Assembly (NCBI GenBank): GCA_049320885.1
Contig: JBMORA010000033.1
Location: forward strand, 1 to 64,000
Length of the DNA stretch: 64,000 nucleotides
Origin: Thermodesulfobacteriota bacterium
GTDB taxonomy: Bacteria; Desulfobacterota; Desulfobacteria; Desulfobacterales; SURF-7
Reading direction: 5' to 3'
Part shown: one piece after another, positions 43,949 through 51,795 of the stretch
Position numbering within the stretch: position 1 is the stretch's first letter
Layout of the letters: each line of letters begins with the position of its first letter
Translations under genes and position numbers: made by a program
The notes under the pieces: generated by a model
The model's input: only the letters and a program-made list of their open reading frames with translations
Database searches by the model: none
What the model was told of the DNA's origin: nothing

Positions 43949-45417
43949 TTCCGTCGATCCAGGAAAATCCGCTTTACGCCATCGCCAATCCGGGCAGCAT
44001 CGCCTTCTTCGGCGCGTCCAACAATTTCAGCGCCATGGGAACCAATATCCTCCAATCCGTTCAGTCCCTGGGATATGCCGGCCGGATCTATCCGGTCCAT
44101 CCCAAGGAAAAACGGGTCATGAACCTCCCGGCCCACGCGGATGTGGCCGATCTCCCGGAAACGCCGGACATGGCCTTCATCGTTCTGCCCACGGATATCG
44201 TCATTCCGACACTGGAGGCCTGCGGCCGTAAGGGCATCCGCCATGCCGTGATCGTTTCCGCCGGATTTAACGAGGTGGGCGGCAAAGGCGTCGACCTGCA
44301 GCAAGAACTGCTCCGGGTGGCCCGGCAATACGGCATCCGTTTTTCCGGACCGAACTGCATCGGCGTGGTGAACCCGCATCACCGCTTGAACGCCACTTTC
44401 CTGCCCTATGAAGCTCGGCCGGGGTTCATCGGCATCGCTTCCCAGAGCGGCAGCTTCGTCACCCAGATGTTCAACTACCTGGATCGCTTCGGGCTGGGCT
44501 TCAGCACCGGCTTCAGCCTGGGCAATGAAGCCGATATCGATCTGGTGGACGCCATCGAATATCTGGGAGCCTGCCCGCACACCCGGGTCATCGCCATGTA
44601 TGTGGAATCCATCCGCCGGGGCAGGGCCTTCATCGAAGCCGCGAGATCCATCATCCCCCGGAAGCCGGTGGTGGCCTTTTATGTGGGCGGCTCCGAAGCC
44701 GGCAAGCGCGCCTGTTTTTCCCATACCGGCGCGCTGGCCGGATCGGACCGGCTGTATGACGGCATTTTCCGGCAAAGCGGGGTGATCCGGGCCCGCTCCA
44801 TCGAGGAAATGTTCGATTTCTGTTACGCCTTCGGCGCTTCGCCCCCGCCCCGGGGAAACCGGGTCATCATTCAAACCCATTCGGGCGGACCGGGGGCGGC
44901 CGCGGCCGACGCCGGGGGTCGGGCCGGGCTGGCGCTGCCGGCCTTGACAGATGAAACCGTCCGGAAACTGGCGCCGTATATGCCCCACACCGGCAGCAGC
45001 GCCAATCCCATCGATCTCACCTATACCAAAAACCCCCTGGACTATTTCCACACCATTCCCGATATCCTGCTGGAGGATGCCGATGCGGATGCGCTGCTGG
45101 TGTATTTTCTGGCCTCCTCCGGCATGGTCCGCCGCGCCCTGGAGGGCCTGGGAATCCCCCAGGAAGAATCCGCGGCCCATGCGGAAAAAATCATCGCCGA
45201 TCAATGCAAGGCCATCGCTTCCCTCGTGGAAAAGCACCGGAAACCACTCATCGGCTATTCGTTCCTGACCCGGGAGAATCCTTTTATCCGGGGCCTCCAG
45301 GATCTCGGCGTGCCGGTCCTGGGCAGCCCGGAACGGGCCGCGCGGGCCGCCGGGGCCATGGCAACCTACGTGCAGCTGAAGCAGAAAATTCTGGAAAGCG
45401 AGAAATCTTCGAGCTGA
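43945..45417 (+). CDS. ADP-forming acyl-CoA ligase, CoA-binding subunit
   Basis: SIAFFGAS, GPNCIG, SQSG, SHTGALAG, NPIDLT. Confidence 0.9.
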   Translation: MIPSIQENPLYAIANPGSIAFFGASNNFSAMGTNILQSVQSLGYAGRIYPVHPKEKRVMNLPAHADVADLPETPDMAFIVLPTDIVIPTLEACGRKGIRHAVIVSAGFNEVGGKGVDLQQELLRVARQYGIRFSGPNCIGVVNPHHRLNATFLPYEARPGFIGIASQSGSFVTQMFNYLDRFGLGFSTGFSLGNEADIDLVDAIEYLGACPHTRVIAMYVESIRRGRAFIEAARSIIPRKPVVAFYVGGSEAGKRACFSHTGALAGSDRLYDGIFRQSGVIRARSIEEMFDFCYAFGASPPPRGNRVIIQTHSGGPGAAAADAGGRAGLALPALTDETVRKLAPYMPHTGSSANPIDLTYTKNPLDYFHTIPDILLEDADADALLVYFLASSGMVRRALEGLGIPQEESAAHAEKIIADQCKAIASLVEKHRKPLIGYSFLTRENPFIRGLQDLGVPVLGSPERAARAAGAMATYVQLKQKILESEKSSS

Positions 45418-45559
45418 AATCGAAAACGGATAAGTGTAGCGAGTGGTTGAATAGATCAGTGATGACGTTTGACCAAGATCTTCATTTTTATGATCGGTTC
45501 ACCCCTTCACCCCTCCCATTGTCGAACCAGGAAATAGGCGCGTGCCGAGAATTCGGGGT

Positions 45560-45606
45560 TTGACTTATTAAATGACCATGGTATTATGACCTTGTCATAA
45601 TGGTCA
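45560..45606 (+). promoter_or_regulatory. TA promoter/operator
   Basis: TTGACT..TATTAT with TTATGAC-CTT-GTCATAA and TGACCAT/ATGGTCA repeats. Confidence 0.6.
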
Positions 45607-45658
45607 GTCCAAGGCCTGAAGGACCAGTTGCGGGGAAGCGTAAAGAGGAATCGGCAAC

Positions 45659-45892
45659 ATGGAAAAGCAGATATCGAAATCACAATTTAAACCTAGGGTT
45701 TTGCAACTTTTCAGGGAAATTGAACGAACGGGCAGGGCGCTGATCATCACCGACCGGGGCAAACCGGTGCTGAAGATCGAACCCTATGCTGAAAAGCCGT
45801 CCGACATCTTGAAAATACTTAGAAATACGGTTATCAAATATGAAGATCCAACCGCACCTGTTGGCCTGGATGACTGGGAATCGCTAACATGA
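45659..45892 (+). CDS. Phd-family antitoxin
   Basis: ISKSQFK..LIITDRGKPV. Confidence 0.88.
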   Translation: MEKQISKSQFKPRVLQLFREIERTGRALIITDRGKPVLKIEPYAEKPSDILKILRNTVIKYEDPTAPVGLDDWESLT

Positions 45893-46284
45893 TCGTCCTC
45901 GATACGCATGCTTGGGTATGGTATGTCAGCAACCCCGAAAATTTTTCCCGAAAAGCAAAAAAAGCGATAGATGACGCGCTGGATCAGCAACAAATCTATA
46001 TTTCCTCAATCAGCGCATGGGAAATTGCGATGCTGGCTTCCAAAAAACGGTTGGAACTGGCTCTCACAGTAGAGGACTGGATTGCAAAATCAGAAAAATT
46101 ACCTTTCTTTCATTTTATTCCGGTTGATAATGCCATTGCGGTTAAGTCGGTTGGTTTACCCCAGCCTTTCCATAATGATCCGGCAGACCGGATCATTATA
46201 GCGACCGCGTTATTATTGGGTGCGGCGGTCATCACCAAAGATGAAAAAATACGGAATTACCCGCATGTAAGAACCATCTGGTAG
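45889..46284 (+). CDS. vapC: VapC PIN toxin
   Basis: LDTHAWVW, ISAWEI, HNDPADRIIIATA, TKD. Confidence 0.9.
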   Translation: MIVLDTHAWVWYVSNPENFSRKAKKAIDDALDQQQIYISSISAWEIAMLASKKRLELALTVEDWIAKSEKLPFFHFIPVDNAIAVKSVGLPQPFHNDPADRIIIATALLLGAAVITKDEKIRNYPHVRTIW

Positions 46285-46420
46285 AATTACAACACGAAAA
46301 AAGTCCCGCTTACTTTCAACTAATCGTATGTTCAGAGGGAAACGGTTTAGCGGCGTTACACCACCCACTGCGTTCAAAAAGAAATGGACATAACCTGATT
46401 AACGGATATAATGGGAAGCA

Positions 46421-46584
46421 GGGGCATGTGGTCGCATCTTAAAAATTAATTATTTTCTTTCCGATCCGATCGACCCGCACTATCTTAACGGCACCACATT
46501 ATCAATACTTGATATTTTAGATGCGACCCTTCTGTTTCCTCATTATCAATACTTGATATTTTAGATGCGACCCTTCTGTTTCCT
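46421..46584. repeat. 119-bp inverted-repeat element, copy 1, plus 44-bp tandem duplication of its right end
   Basis: GGTCGCATCT..AGATGCGACC termini; 46497-46540 identical to 46541-46584. Confidence 0.85.
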
Positions 46585-46896
46585 TTCCGTTTTGTTGCCG
46601 TAGTGATCCGTGACAGTGAGAAGATCCGATGCGGCATCATAGGCATAAAAGGTCGAAAAGACCGCTTCGCGCTCGTCGGCTTCATTGTATTCGTCAACTT
46701 CGATGATCCTGCCGAGATAGTCGCGTTTCTCCACTTTCCGGTTATTGTCCGGGTCGGTGATGTTTGGAAAATCACATCTTCCGCTCTTAAAACGCTTTTT
46801 TCAGCCCCAAAAACATCATTCTAAGACCTCAAAATGGTCTGTTTTTTATCCTAACCAATTGATAGTAATAGGTTCTACTTGGTCCGACAAGAAATC
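46584..46896. repeat. 313-bp direct repeat, copy A (Rhs stub + 135-bp non-coding module)
   Basis: Matches 49527-49839 with 8 mismatches counted by eye. Confidence 0.92.
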
Positions 46897-46967
46897 CAGA
46901 AATCGTTTGCAAGCAGTTACCTATGTCCGGCAAGAAATCAAAATCATTCTCTATTGGCCTGTCTTCT

Positions 46968-47384
46968 TCACTTCATCTTAATTAATTTACCATTATTTTT
47001 ATCTATACGCCATCTTGTTGTATTGCTATCTCTATTGGTGTGCTCTATAAACTCAAGAACATTATCCTTGCTATAAAAGTATTTAAAAATATCTGTTATC
47101 TTATCTTCGACTTGTCCGTTATTTAAATTCCACTTTTGATGTTTTTCATAATAATCGATAGTACCATCTTTATTGTAGTAAACAGTTAAATAAGCGTCTT
47201 TATAATCCGCTATTTCTTCTGAAGTCATCTCATAACTAGGATCAGGTTCAATTGGTATTGTCATAAGATTAGCTCTTTTATAGTAATATGGGCCACCGAT
47301 GCGATCGCTATGTGCATTGCATGAAAAATTTATCAATAAAACTAAAAATATAAAAAAAAAGATACAAATATTAAATTTTAGCAT
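46968..47384 (-). CDS. putative lipoprotein immunity protein
   Basis: MLKFNICIFFFIFLVLLINFSC signal/lipobox; AT-rich; directly after the Rhs tip. Confidence 0.7.
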   Translation of the reverse strand: MLKFNICIFFFIFLVLLINFSCNAHSDRIGGPYYYKRANLMTIPIEPDPSYEMTSEEIADYKDAYLTVYYNKDGTIDYYEKHQKWNLNNGQVEDKITDIFKYFYSKDNVLEFIEHTNRDSNTTRWRIDKNNGKLIKMK

Positions 47385-47415
47385 TGAAAATTTTCCTCTC
47401 TTATAATGTAGCTTC

Positions 47416-49704
47416 TTATTCATTTTTCCGAGAACGTTCCTGGGCTTTTTCATTAAGATGATTGACCATATCGGATTGAAATGTTTGGCATTCTTGAGCA
47501 AATGAATCAACTCCAATTCTATAGCTTCCCTCAAATGAGTGCGCATAGTTCTCCATCTCTTGTTTAGCTTCTTCACAAGTCATCTCAGAATTTCTTATTT
47601 CTAAATTATACACTCTATCCGCTGGCTTCCCCTCATATGGATCATGATCTTCTTCTCCGCCAGGAAAAACACCGACACCGTTTACAATTCCTCTAACGCC
47701 AGTCAGCGCTTCATAGTTACTGACCCGCTTCTCAGGGTACAATCCCCAACTTTTTACATCAGGAGTTCTAGGATTAGCTTCGGACCAATAATGACCCCAC
47801 TTGGTTCTCTCTGGATCTTTTTTAAACAGATCAGGATCAATTTGCTTAAATTCAATATCTGTGCAAACCACAATCGATTCTGAAACCGATTGACTGCTAT
47901 TCCCCTCACTATTATCGTTTCCTGATTCACTCGATCCATTTGAGTTGGAGCCACCAAAAAGTCCTGCCACACCTCGACAGAAATTTCCTATAGCTCCGGA
48001 TATTCCTTCGCCGTCGTCCCAAGAATGGCCAGTCGGATCAATATATTTTAGCGGATTGTTTCTTGCATAAGCATATCGGTTCAAACCTTGCGGATCATAG
48101 TAATTAGGCCAAATATTATCCGCACTAACAAACACCCCCAATATCGGATCATACAACCGCGCCCTATAGTTGTAGAGCCCGATCTCGGCATCCTGCTCCT
48201 GGTCCGTGAACTTATAGTTCGATACGGTCTGATGATTGCCGGAGCGGTTCTGGCCGAAGGGCATGTATTGGGTGGTTTCGCTGCCGGTAGCGGGATTGCC
48301 GCTTGCGTCGGTGACGATGGTGGAGCTGCCGAGGTGGTCCTTGTGATAATAATGGATTTCTTCCCCTTCTCCGGTATTCGTTATCTTCGCGATCCGCTGG
48401 TTGTTGGCGAATATATATCTTACCGGCACGCCGTTGACAATCTCGTATTCCCTGGTGACGTAGAGGGTCGTACCGGCGGTTGTCTCTTTCCTGACCCTGC
48501 TGTTGTCCGCATCATACAAGAGGTGGGTTGTACGGGTCTCGCCGTTTTTGGTGTAATCGATCTTCTCCGCCATGTTGTCGATGCTGAAGGTGATCTCGCG
48601 CACGGCCGGAGCGGTGATGTCGCTCAAATCCCAGCCCCTGGTCATGTTGCCTTTGCGGTCGTATTCGAATTGATAGGACGCGCCGTTCCGCTTGATGGTT
48701 TTCACCGCATGGGGGTGGGTAGAATCATAACCGTATTCCATGACGAAATCGGCCGGGTATTTCGGATCGCGTTCCGGGGCCTCCTGCTTCAAGCGATGCA
48801 GGCTGTCGTAATTGTAATACGCTTCAAGCTGATTGGGATTATCCCGGATAAACCGGACGTCTCCCGCCGGAGAATATTGGTATTCCAATTCCTGCAAAAT
48901 GCCGGCTTCAGAAACAGTATATGTCTGGGCCGACGTCATGCGCAGGGAATACGGATCGTACCCGTAATTCGTATAGACGACCCCACCGCCGTATTTTATG
49001 GAACCGACACTGCCGGACGGATTGTACCCCTCGAACTCGGCATAACCAACATTCCTGACCAGCCCGGTTTTAGGGTAATAGTCGTAGGTCACCGTCCCGA
49101 GCTCATCAGGCCACAGGATGCTCCGCAATTTTCCGGCGACATCGTATTGGTATTTAATCAGATAGCTTTGCTCGCCGATCGCCTTGCCGGTTTTGACGAC
49201 CCGGCCCATGCTGTCATATTCATAGGCCGCCATAACCGTTGCGGGGGTCCGGTGATCCTCCGAGTAATGCAGCCGGCCGACGCCGTTTTCCGGGGATGTG
49301 TCGTAATGAAATTCCACATACCCTTTATCGACGCCGCCGGATAGATAGGCACGCCGGGTGATCCGGCCCAGGGCGTCCGGCGTGAACGCAACGGATTCCA
49401 CCACCGCATCGCCTTCGCCCAGCAGATACTGGCCGGTCAGCACGCCGTTGCGGTTATATTCATACCGCCGGTTGCCCATGTCCGGATCGCTCATCCGGGT
49501 CTTGCGGCCCAGCGTATCGTAAATCATTTCCGTTTTGTTGCCGTAGTGATCCGTGACAGTGAGAAGATCCGATGCGGCATCATAGGCATAAAAGGTCGAA
49601 AAAACCGCTTCGCGCTCGTCGGCTTCATTGTATTCGTCAACTTCGATGATCCTGCCGAGATAGTCGCGTTTCTCCACTTTCCGGTTATTGTCCGGGTCGG
49701 TGAT
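47416..49704 (-). pseudogene. orphan Rhs/YD-repeat fragment with C-terminal toxin
   Basis: YD repeats, DHLGSS, FTDQEQD, YNYRARLYDP, NRYAYARNNPLKYIDPTGH; starts mid-core. Confidence 0.9.
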
Positions 49705-49839
49705 GTTTGGAAAATCACATCTTCCGTTCTTAAAACGCTTTTTCCAGCCCCCAAAACATCGTTCTAAGACCCCAAAGTGGCCTGTTTTTTATCCTAACCA
49801 ATTGATAGTAATAGGTTCTACTTGGTCCGACAAGAAATC
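49527..49839. repeat. 313-bp direct repeat, copy B
   Basis: Offset 2943 bp from copy A. Confidence 0.92.
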
Positions 49840-49886
49840 GGAGCGCAGTACCGCACGCGGCGGGCTCGGCACAAGGCATTCGTCGG

Positions 49887-50207
49887 TTAAAAGGGAGACT
49901 CTTCTGCATCACGATTCCACCCCCAATCTTTTAGCATTTCAATAAAACTTTGCCTATCGTAGGGTTCTTGGCCATACGAATTATCGATAATCGATACTCC
50001 ATATCCCATGTTAATAATTTCATTTGTAAATAATTTAACAGAGTCAAATTTATTAACGATAAGCATGCCATTAGGTGGCCCGAAATCCTTTACTAATAAT
50101 TCTGCGAATATTTGGTCACCGGATGGCAGCTTCAATCTATAAGGTGTGACTATTATAAAGCCTATATCTTCTGCAGCCAATTGCCACCTTTTAATTATAT
50201 CACTCAT
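49887..50207 (-). CDS. putative cytoplasmic immunity protein
   Basis: AT-rich 106-aa ORF with GAGGA RBS right after the Rhs tip; no signal peptide. Confidence 0.65.
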   Translation of the reverse strand: MSDIIKRWQLAAEDIGFIIVTPYRLKLPSGDQIFAELLVKDFGPPNGMLIVNKFDSVKLFTNEIINMGYGVSIIDNSYGQEPYDRQSFIEMLKDWGWNRDAEESPF

Positions 50208-50225
50208 AATATTACGTCCTCACGA

Positions 50226-51059
50226 TTATCTGATAGGAATATGTCTTACAGGGCCAACATGTCCGTGCCAAATATTGATATTCCTATCAGGATGTATTTC
50301 AGGGCCTCTTACCGTATTTTCTGGAAAAGGATCTTCAAGTTGTTTATTCAACTCTTTATAAGTACTCATATCATCAGCAGAAATGCCGCCTTTCTTTTTA
50401 TCTTGCTTAGCCATTTCTACTAATGCCTGTTTTTCATCACTATGTTTTCCACATTCAGTGTCAGTCGAGCCTTGATTTTGTTTGACTTGAGGCAAACTTT
50501 CAAGAAGATTATAAAGATCCAATGTGGCCGCGCCTGTCATGAGTCCTGCAGCGAGAATATCACCGAAAGGTAATGGGCCATCCATAATAGCCATATACCC
50601 CGCAATAGGAGCTGCTGCTTGCAGATAAAATTCACCCGTTGGATCAATCAGGTTCACCGGATTATTCAGGACATATCCATACAGATCAGTATCCCCACCG
50701 TCAAAAAGGATCGGATCTTTAGCGGTCCATCGACCTGTCTCCGGGTCATAGTCGCGGTAGCCGAATCGCACCAGCCCGGTGTCCCGGTCATGCAGGCCGC
50801 CGGCAAATCCGAACGGAATTGTGAAGGCGGGGTTCGTGTCCGCGAGTATATACCCGAAGGCGTCGTAGTCAACTGTTTTGATGAGATTGCCTAACGCATC
50901 CGTCACCGCGCGTAAGGACCCCACTTGATCGTAGAGGAGATAGTAGCGCTGGCCGGAGCGGGTCAGGGAGACGGGCAGGCGGCTGTCCGCGTATTCCAGG
51001 CGCAGGATCAGGTTGTCGGCGCCATCATAAACCGCCAGAAGTTGTGTCAACCCCTGCCA
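50226..51059 (-). pseudogene. orphan Rhs core end with C-terminal toxin
   Basis: DQVGSLRAV, FGFAGGLHDRDTGLVRFGYRDYDP, YVLNNPVNLIDPTGE; 5' end abuts the repeat element. Confidence 0.9.
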
Positions 51060-51064
51060 GGGCG

Positions 51065-51183
51065 GGGGCATGGGGTCACATCTCAAAATTTAAGTATTTT
51101 CTTTCCGATCTGATCGACTCGCGCTATCTTAGCGGCACCACCATATCAATCCTTAATATTGTAGATGCGACCGTTCTGTTTCC
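51065..51183. repeat. 119-bp inverted-repeat element, copy 2
   Basis: 104/119 identical to 46421-46539 by eye; same orientation. Confidence 0.85.
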
Positions 51184-51189
51184 CCCGCC

Positions 51190-51345
51190 GCCGTATTTTA
51201 TGAGCATTTTCAGGTCCGCGGAACTTCAAGGATTGAATCCTGTCGAGAAAACCATCGAAGACGCCAGGACTTTGCGCCAAGGTAAAAATGATGATAGGGT
51301 CGGATTCGAATTGGCAGCCTAATTTTCAAAGAGCCAAACTGTTAC
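51190..51345 (+). mobile_element. 3' remnant of an IS66-family (ISBst12-like) element
   Basis: FMSIFRSAELQGLNPVE transposase-like tail followed by an AACTGTTAC terminus. Confidence 0.55.
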
Positions 51346-51360
51346 GAAAAGATGAGGAGG

Positions 51361-51795
51361 ATGCAAGCGGTGTCCATGTCCGATCTGCGAAAAATCGTCG
51401 AACCCTTTGTGCGGAATGTGCTGGGATGCGGCTGTCCGGATGCGGTTTTTGACGATATCCGGATGGTCGATCCAAAGGACGGATTGGCGGGAATGCCGAT
51501 CGATTATCTGCTCCTAATCGGCGGCCGCCTGCTCATTGTCGTCTGCGCATCCGATCCTGATGCGGATATGGCGGCGCATCTGGCACAACTGGTCCATTCC
51601 GGCAGGCAGTTGCGCGACGAGCTTGGCTTCAATCGCTTCCGGTTGGTGGTGCCGCTTGCCGATATGGAATCAACCCGGAAACTCCGGCAGGCCTTCGCAG
51701 CCCTGACCGGATTGGATGATCGCACCCACCTGCATGTCCTGGCGCCGTCCATGCTGCCGACAATCCAGTTCCCGTCGCACCCGCTTCAGGGATGA
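51361..51795 (+). CDS. hypothetical protein
   Basis: GAGGAGG RBS; LGCGCPDAVF...GFNRFRLV...DDRTHLH. Confidence 0.65.
   Translation: MQAVSMSDLRKIVEPFVRNVLGCGCPDAVFDDIRMVDPKDGLAGMPIDYLLLIGGRLLIVVCASDPDADMAAHLAQLVHSGRQLRDELGFNRFRLVVPLADMESTRKLRQAFAALTGLDDRTHLHVLAPSMLPTIQFPSHPLQG

Follow-up and report, generated by a model that had tools for sequence, protein, structure and literature searches.

What brings two copies of one small repeat up against the truncated ends of Rhs toxin genes? The question is raised by a window of 64,000 nucleotides (contig JBMORA010000033.1, positions 1 to 64,000, of assembly GCA_049320885.1) from a bacterium of the order Desulfobacterales, in which a short array of Rhs toxin tips and putative immunity genes is bracketed by two 119-bp repeats, here called E1 and E2. 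An initial annotation took these repeats for non-autonomous ends of an HUH/RAYT-type element and went on to propose a dedicated polymorphic-toxin shuffling system. The first idea is borne out, while the second is unsupported. Judged by their sequence, E1 and E2 are internally deleted copies of a TIRYT, a RAYT-like Y1/HUH element with terminal inverted repeats (TIRs): the left end is fused to the last 12 transposase codons and the right end. The explanation that we favour, and consider probable, is that a TIRYT transposase supplied in trans joined generalist TIRYT ends, carried by such deleted elements, to Rhs fragments and so truncated this array.

Identity of the 119-bp repeats

E1 and E2 lie where they were annotated, in the same orientation, and agree without gaps at 104 of 119 positions (BLASTN E 1e-36). 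A BLASTN search of the 119-mer against the organism's own assembly (5.6 Mb, 68 contigs) returns these two full copies only, both touching Rhs breakpoints. The inverted ends of E1 are GGTCGCATCT..AGATGCGACC; those of E2 have GGTCACATCT at one side. Aligned to TIRYT elements on the minus strand, E divides into two parts: its first ~62 nt correspond to their left end and its last ~57 nt to their right, where the C-terminal transposase codons are in frame. The aligned elements are in genomes G103, G197 and G255 (G, C and L handles denote genomes, contigs and loci), which thereby supply the longer, transposase-bearing parents that had been anticipated. The final codons in the right half read RVDQIGKKILKF and then a stop in E2, and RVDQIKKKIFNI in G197; codons and stop lie at about 46477-46439 in E1 and 51121-51083 in E2. 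The description of the repeats as non-coding is therefore apt for most of their length, which is gene-less, but not for these retained codons. The left TIR of E1 starts at 46530 and its right TIR ends at 46428. The right TIR of E2, GGGGTCAC at 51072, fits the motif GGGGWSAS, and the remaining three ends are variants of it that are common to intact elements. The predicted folding of E consists chiefly of pairing between its two ends (z about -2.2 in three of four strands).

Matches to E occur in 19 of the 301 genomes of the order, with one half only in each except the element's own genome, and the best of them are the ends of RAYT-like genes starting MARPLRIE. G103 holds a different deletion derivative, of ~400 bp. 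The parent protein at L012 (324 aa) matches Y1_Tnp (PF01797, E 1e-13) and Bac_DnaA_C (PF08299, E 9e-9); its best match in NCBIfam is REP_Tyr_transpos, below the cut-off, with no IS200 match, and its ~26-bp TIR is common to its closest relatives. Unlike the IS200/IS605 elements, with their short TnpA, subterminal hairpins and lack of TIRs, this parent has a helix-turn-helix (HTH) tail as well as TIRs. Domain content and TIR motif fit subclass 2.1 of TnpA-Y1 (TIRYT/TIRtron) as set out in the accessible passages of the published descriptions (Di Nocera et al., 2013, PMC3733652; Quentin et al., 2018, PMC6006769), to which the TIR tables in the supplements of both papers may add on family assignment.

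TIRYTs form a large RAYT subclass, given as present in 14.9% of strains in the part of PMC6006769 available, and they occur in 242 of the 301 genomes here. Intact copies (L094, L126, L150, L161, L168, L181) often carry, beyond the two TIRs, a further 5-13 bases that match each other when inverted and look like one flank copied to the other end; the mini-elements have a weak excess of the same (1.08 vs 0.41 nt).

Element ends at Rhs breakpoints and elsewhere

A truncated Rhs gene does stand beside each copy, as annotated, but copy 1 does not join its Rhs stub directly: a 44-bp reiteration of its own left end, a feature common at the outer ends of TIRYT elements, lies between the two. The join to the stub falls at 46581, 10 nt outside the TIR, and has 5 nt of microhomology. 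At E2, 5 nt separate the end of the repeat from 51059, the start of homology to an Rhs frame of at least 750 aa in G197, a genome of the same genus; measured against this homolog, 73% identical, the join lies 12-13 nt from the TIR. No target duplication is found at E1 or E2.

That element ends sit on Rhs breakpoints is also seen, at base level, in other genomes of the order. Sixty regions around Rhs cores, from 43 genomes, were taken from the best 150 of 583 matches with short frames favoured, and were scanned with TIR matrices trained on TIRYT loci chosen without regard to Rhs. TIRYT coding pieces are present in 10 of the 60, and the matrices, which pass over the GGGACAG types of TIR, find 62 matches in the 561 kb of sequence as opposed to 1-2 in shuffles. 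With Rhs segments having less than 250 nt upstream dropped, 13 of 92 Rhs starts, in 8 of 39 genomes, have a TIR match between -40 and +200 nt, and at the same loci this holds for 8 of 393 starts of other open reading frames (ORFs); permutation to random intergenic positions gives a mean of 4.5 and a maximum of 11 in 2000 runs. Within the narrower span of ±40 nt there are 6 Rhs starts where 1.75 are expected. The segment L061:8150-8989, omitted from this test as suspect, was later shown to be a real Rhs fragment ~8 nt from a TIR, which makes the omission conservative.

Same-genome paralogs allow the 5' breakpoints of orphan Rhs genes to be mapped to the base, and at 8 of 37 of these (4 of 13 genomes) the outer end of a TIR is 7-12 nt away. 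Chance gives a mean of 0.7 and a maximum of 4 in 500 runs, and the motif is absent elsewhere in those 60-nt windows. The first retained Rhs base is C at six of the eight, an observation made post hoc on which we base no claim. Within G276, a single TIRYT end is joined to differing positions of one Rhs core. At L061 in G005 exact direct repeats of 250 bp flank a TIRYT lying inside Rhs, and at L036 in G276 an Rhs with ~220 nt missing contains an E-family TIR pair; this duplication and this deletion together point to two ends joined independently.

The same signature is found beside other DNA. Outside the Rhs sets there are 564 TIR ends, 52 of which have a TIR-free homolog of the flank; homology breaks 4-16 nt outside the TIR at 20 of these 52, compared with 1-6 per equal bin further out, and the neighbour is not Rhs at 17 of the 20. 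Nor do 79 mini-elements have target duplications above chance (longest direct repeat 3.59 vs 3.63 shuffled). Classical miniature inverted-repeat transposable elements (MITEs) are short non-autonomous deletion derivatives of DDE insertion sequences with inverted ends. E differs in its lack of a target-site duplication, its Y1/HUH rather than DDE parent and its low copy number, and the suggestion that it might be a catalogued MITE with ordinary target duplications finds none at E1, E2 or the 79 relatives.

In G059, G135, G276 and G037, TIRYT copies are interleaved with sugar genes, toxin-antitoxin (TA) modules and other pairs of toxin/immunity-like type. The longest such series (L223 and L224, G059:C1:3845000-3885000) has at least nine full or partial co-oriented copies over 40 kb, most of them near-identical, in alternation with TA pairs, sugar-modification genes and ATPases, and it resembles a cassette array without an integrase. 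At L225 (G135:C6:5000-24000), six frameshifted copies alternate with paralogous membrane-protein genes and truncated toxin-like ORFs, forming a polymorphic toxin/immunity-like array of non-Rhs type on TIRYT ends, two junctions of which have the signature at 9-10 nt.

Specificity for Rhs is absent from the family. A scan of GTDB finds E-type TIR pairs 54-110 bp long at 122 or more loci in several phyla. Rhs is found at none of the 80 loci with a flank of up to 3 kb and at one of the 42 with ~300 bp, which is the G276 element again. Rhs lies within 1.5-4 kb of 2 of 128 TIRYT loci, abutting neither, and is not among the 70 neighbouring ORFs scanned out of 140, which are a mix of metabolic, TA-like and insertion sequence genes. 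In the organism's own genome, 6 of ~44 TIR-like sites are within 2 kb of Rhs and the other 38 are not near it. The dedicated shuffling system, which turned on copies being enriched at rhs genes, is thus largely refuted, related elements being scattered away from rhs. Loci L253-L374 comprise 121 distinct gene-less E-type TIR pairs with unrelated spacers in Desulfobacterota, Verrucomicrobiota, Planctomycetota, Acidobacteriota and others, and several genomes carry small families of them.

The Rhs island

Co-oriented, 5'-truncated cores, each with a tip and a downstream immunity-like gene (immunity being read from position), are what one sees in orphan rhs-CT/immunity arrays (CT, C-terminal), and the island between the two repeats has this form (Table 1). 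Read along the minus strand, E2 is followed by truncated Rhs-A with its tip, small gene A, a 44-bp repeat piece and a 120-bp repeat, Y; then come truncated Rhs-B with its tip, small gene B, a second Y, an Rhs-B stub, the 44-bp reiteration and E1. A Phd/PIN pair outside the island converges on the right end of E1.

Table 1. Features of the island and its flank (positions in the window)
Feature	Position	Strand	Basis or remark
Phd/YefM antitoxin (45659-45892) and PIN toxin (45889-46284)	45659..46284	+	PF02604 E 4e-6 (below cut-off); PF01850 E 5e-20
E1, mini-TIRYT	46421..46539	-	halves align to TIRYT ends L011 and L012; translation; TIR matrix matches
Tandem reiteration of E1 left end, 44 bp	46538..46581	-	1 mismatch
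Rhs-B stub, truncated at both ends	46581..46777	-	part of 316-bp duplicate of 49524-49839
Second copy of Y, decayed end of another TIRYT type (C27/C31 type)	46777..46896	-	matches C28:28-155 and C35:73512-73638
Putative immunity gene B, 138 aa, low GC	46968..47384	-	function inferred from position behind Rhs-CT
Rhs-B, 5'-truncated, core end and C-terminal tip	47416..49704	-	TIGR03696 E 1e-21; YD repeats
First copy of Y (decayed end of second TIRYT type), fused to Rhs-B start	49720..49839	-	
Piece of dispersed repeat, 44 bp	49843..49887	.	also upstream of C27 TIRYT (C27:62366-62410) and at ~ten places in G197
Putative immunity gene A, 106 aa, low GC	49887..50207	-	function inferred from position
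Rhs-A, 5'-truncated, core end and tip	50226..51059	-	TIGR03696; 73% DNA identity to long G197 Rhs from 51059
E2, mini-TIRYT	51065..51183	-	translation; TIR matrix matches; alignment to TIRYT ends

Gene B has no Pfam match over the cut-off and no NCBIfam match, and gene A no family in either. The Rhs-B tip resembles unnamed clusters, with TseH-like domains as a lead, and the Rhs-A tip is nearest Ntox21, at 0.89, also as a lead. An Rfam scan of 45300-51600 returns no match, and a metagenome search with Rhs-B gives 24 pattern matches, none of them confirmed.

Neither Rhs fragment has a BLASTN match on the other contigs of the assembly (98% complete, 68 contigs), including the full-length rhs genes on C24 and C30. 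It follows that both cores came from outside or lost their parents, and redeployment by homologous recombination is left without a visible partner. The same contigs carry a giant Rhs-type protein of 5303 aa (C30:105718-121629) and an 1850-aa Rhs behind a 3723-aa ORF (C24:69020-85858).

Repeat Y is similar to the 3' end of a second type of TIRYT, represented on C27 and C31, and to the TIRs of that type, and it weakly matches Rhs arrays on C10 and C30. Its CTTG-like motif was considered as an IS91-type ori end and rejected, the same bases being a TIR variant of an intact TIRYT in G111 (L216). At the Y/Rhs-B junction (49712-49727), an 8-nt match to the E-type right TIR stands ~7 nt before recognisable Rhs codons, possibly as a decayed third end and possibly by chance. 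Orphan Rhs modules at C10:25200-28200 and C30:122070-122569 share one composite leader, made of a TIRYT right-end remnant and another short repeat, at the same core position; its join is also present in G111 (L069) and is thus inherited within the genus.

Integron and other recombinase cassette arrays combine a tyrosine recombinase with attC/attI-like sites. An attC-like reading of 49843-49887 is unsupported on inspection by eye. The dispersed, GC-rich repeat of ~100 bp to which this piece belongs often adjoins TIRYT ends and is also found in Rhs arrays.

The 316-bp segment 46581-46896, comprising Y and the Rhs-B stub, duplicates 49524-49839 with 9 mismatches. In the contigs of run X1, possibly the source sample, this duplicate has a depth of ~40 as compared with 19-23 elsewhere; the doubling shows the duplication to be real rather than an assembly artefact. 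The one joint in the X1 contigs, from 46904 to 49818, falls inside the 316-bp repeat, and a graph artefact is its likeliest source. No circular form of the array is found in the contigs of run X1 and no empty site is found either, G111 having both flanks on separate contigs without the island, and so movement of the array as a unit is without support. A composite transposon running from E2 to E1 was likewise rejected, as it has no target duplication and its ends are 13% diverged.

How the joins may have arisen

In the explanation that we favour, a TIRYT transposase acting in trans would bind the TIR, make a nick in single-stranded DNA at 5-12 bases beyond it and join each end to its target separately. 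A gene next to the end would thereby be cut, lose a part or have a part duplicated, with no ordinary target duplication. Rhs arrays would be likely to gather such scars, since a cut on the 5' side spares both the tip and its immunity gene and would hence be tolerated and retained. As to the order of events, a single deletion would have given the mini-element, which would have been duplicated long ago (13% divergence); the 316-bp segment would have been duplicated later (3%), and the left end of E1 would have been joined into that duplicate last and reiterated. Taken with the reiteration, which differs at 1 of 44 bp, these divergences suggest continued joining of the E1 end after the mini-element had lost its gene. 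The related TnpA-REP enzymes, for their part, cleave and strand-transfer single-stranded DNA at short sites near their repeats, according to the available part of PMC8266576.

Several points weigh against this explanation. The cleavage step is taken over by analogy from other RAYT subclasses, and no TIRYT biochemistry was found in the literature searched. The genome has eight Y1_Tnp matches, and its assembly holds no intact transposase of the E TIR type, which survives there only as decayed pieces on C9, C24 and C51; E1 and E2 are therefore probably relics now. The 5-nt microhomology at the E1 join would also be usable by host illegitimate recombination, the homolog used to place the E2 join is not the true parent, and the 52 informative ends away from Rhs are a small and non-random part of the 564. 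The Rhs signal, moreover, comes from few genomes, all of one order, in which related genomes do not count as independent. In a replication set of 60 Rhs regions drawn from the phylum's other orders (36 genomes), the breakpoint test (22 genomes) found the signature at 1 of 52, with 1.1 expected by chance, so that replication failed, and a TIR match lies at just 4 of 101 Rhs starts. In this same set, and after that failure, a TIR-like end preceding an Rhs was found in G320.

A more far-reaching alternative, which we regard as rather unlikely, is that TIRYT ends provide a homology-independent route by which orphan Rhs arrays in this order are built, tips and immunity genes being captured from elsewhere, sometimes with a promoter or start codon, and other cargo being moved as well. 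Repeated units of TIRYT end, truncated Rhs and immunity gene in G276, G005, G135 and G148 speak for it, as do the arrays of TIRYTs interleaved with TA and other toxin/immunity-like modules, and both cores of the present island being without a DNA match on other contigs. So do fusions, found after the failed replication, of a TIRYT left end with its start codon and first 14-25 codons to truncated Rhs in G345 (L395, L396) and G421 (L406), two copies in each genome; that in G345 is in frame and could give a chimeric protein. An in-frame ATG for Rhs-A likewise stands at 51071, within the outer extension of E2 and beside its TIR, but a scan for consensus promoters (16 sites vs 11.3 expected overall) places none for the Rhs strand within either repeat. 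Against capture, too, is that no circle, empty site or translocated identical tip is seen, that the outer-end signature is at just 9 of 89 mapped breakpoints with both sets pooled, and that insertion followed by deletion explains the same scars.

It is quite improbable, in our judgement, that the co-occurrence is passive, with wrecked TIRYTs and Rhs fragments lying in a shared AT-rich island and being joined by host recombination, either homologous at repeated ends or illegitimate at microhomologies, without the transposase. TIRYTs are, to be sure, very widespread in the order, the 316-bp duplication is of a kind that homologous recombination would give and the replication set is at chance level; in orphan arrays, as the accessible passages of the papers concerned describe them, transposases and integrases are among the genes present (PMC4927057), and duplication and homologous recombination are known sources of rearrangement (PMC3967940). 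This alternative leaves unexplained why joins cluster 5-12 nt outside the TIR, at Rhs and non-Rhs neighbours alike, and why TIRs are enriched over other ORF starts and intergenic positions. As for a dedicated shuffling system in which the family is specialised for Rhs and a mobile cassette of Rhs tips has E1 at one end and E2 at the other, the touching of Rhs breakpoints by both copies that bracket the array and the further TIR pair inside Rhs in G276 do little to lift it from the very improbable, set against the scatter of mini-elements, TIRYTs and TIR-like sites away from Rhs, the single breakpoint in the replication set, and ends that have diverged without flanking duplications.

Upon comparison with described systems, the parents of E resemble TIRtron/TIRYT elements, as far as the accessible text of the two source papers describes them, in having a Y1/HUH transposase with a DnaA-type C-terminal HTH between TIRs that fit or approach GGGGWSAS, in the overlap of the TIR with the 3' end of the gene and in dispersed TIR dimers; E itself differs as a gene-less 119-bp left-plus-right deletion derivative. 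The term 'rhs' occurs 0 times in the main text of either PMC3733652 or PMC6006769, and their available passages are silent on joins 5-12 nt outside the TIR and on large target duplications or deletions. REPtrons (TnpA-REP with REP and REPIN) share the enzyme superfamily and have non-autonomous repeats served in trans, as the part of PMC8266576 at hand describes, whereas E has no GTAG/GTGG-tagged short hairpin and is present in two copies rather than hundreds, and intact TIRYTs form multi-copy units. With orphan rhs-CT/immunity arrays (PMC3967940) and their equivalents in contact-dependent inhibition (PMC4927057), again as described in the accessible passages, the island shares co-oriented 5'-truncated cores, tips, downstream small genes, segmental duplication and transposase remnants between modules; unlike them, it has no main rhs at the locus, and its 5' breakpoints coincide with the ends of HUH elements. 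The preprint 10.1101/2024.07.17.603846 treats RAYT and Rhs separately, drawing no link in the part available, and no link of TIRYT or RAYT ends to Rhs breakpoints appears in the literature searched by title and start of abstract, with most subscription papers outside that search.

E is a new non-autonomous member of the described TIRYT family and is not a new dedicated toxin-diversifying system. What the Rhs genes contribute is a ruler, in that their paralogs place TIRYT joins at base resolution, and a sharp prediction results: the cut should fall 5-12 nt beyond the TIR, each end should act independently, and no fixed target duplication should arise. One may go further and suppose, tentatively and with considerably more doubt than confidence, that TIRYT transposases are end-joining enzymes that cut at this distance outside each TIR independently and build cassette-like arrays without an integrase, which would give the orphan Rhs arrays of this order a homology-independent route to gain, trim and sometimes re-express tips, beside toxin-antitoxin and other cargo. 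The joins bear, in any case, on how orphan Rhs modules come by their 5' ends, something that homologous recombination from core to core leaves unexplained on its own.

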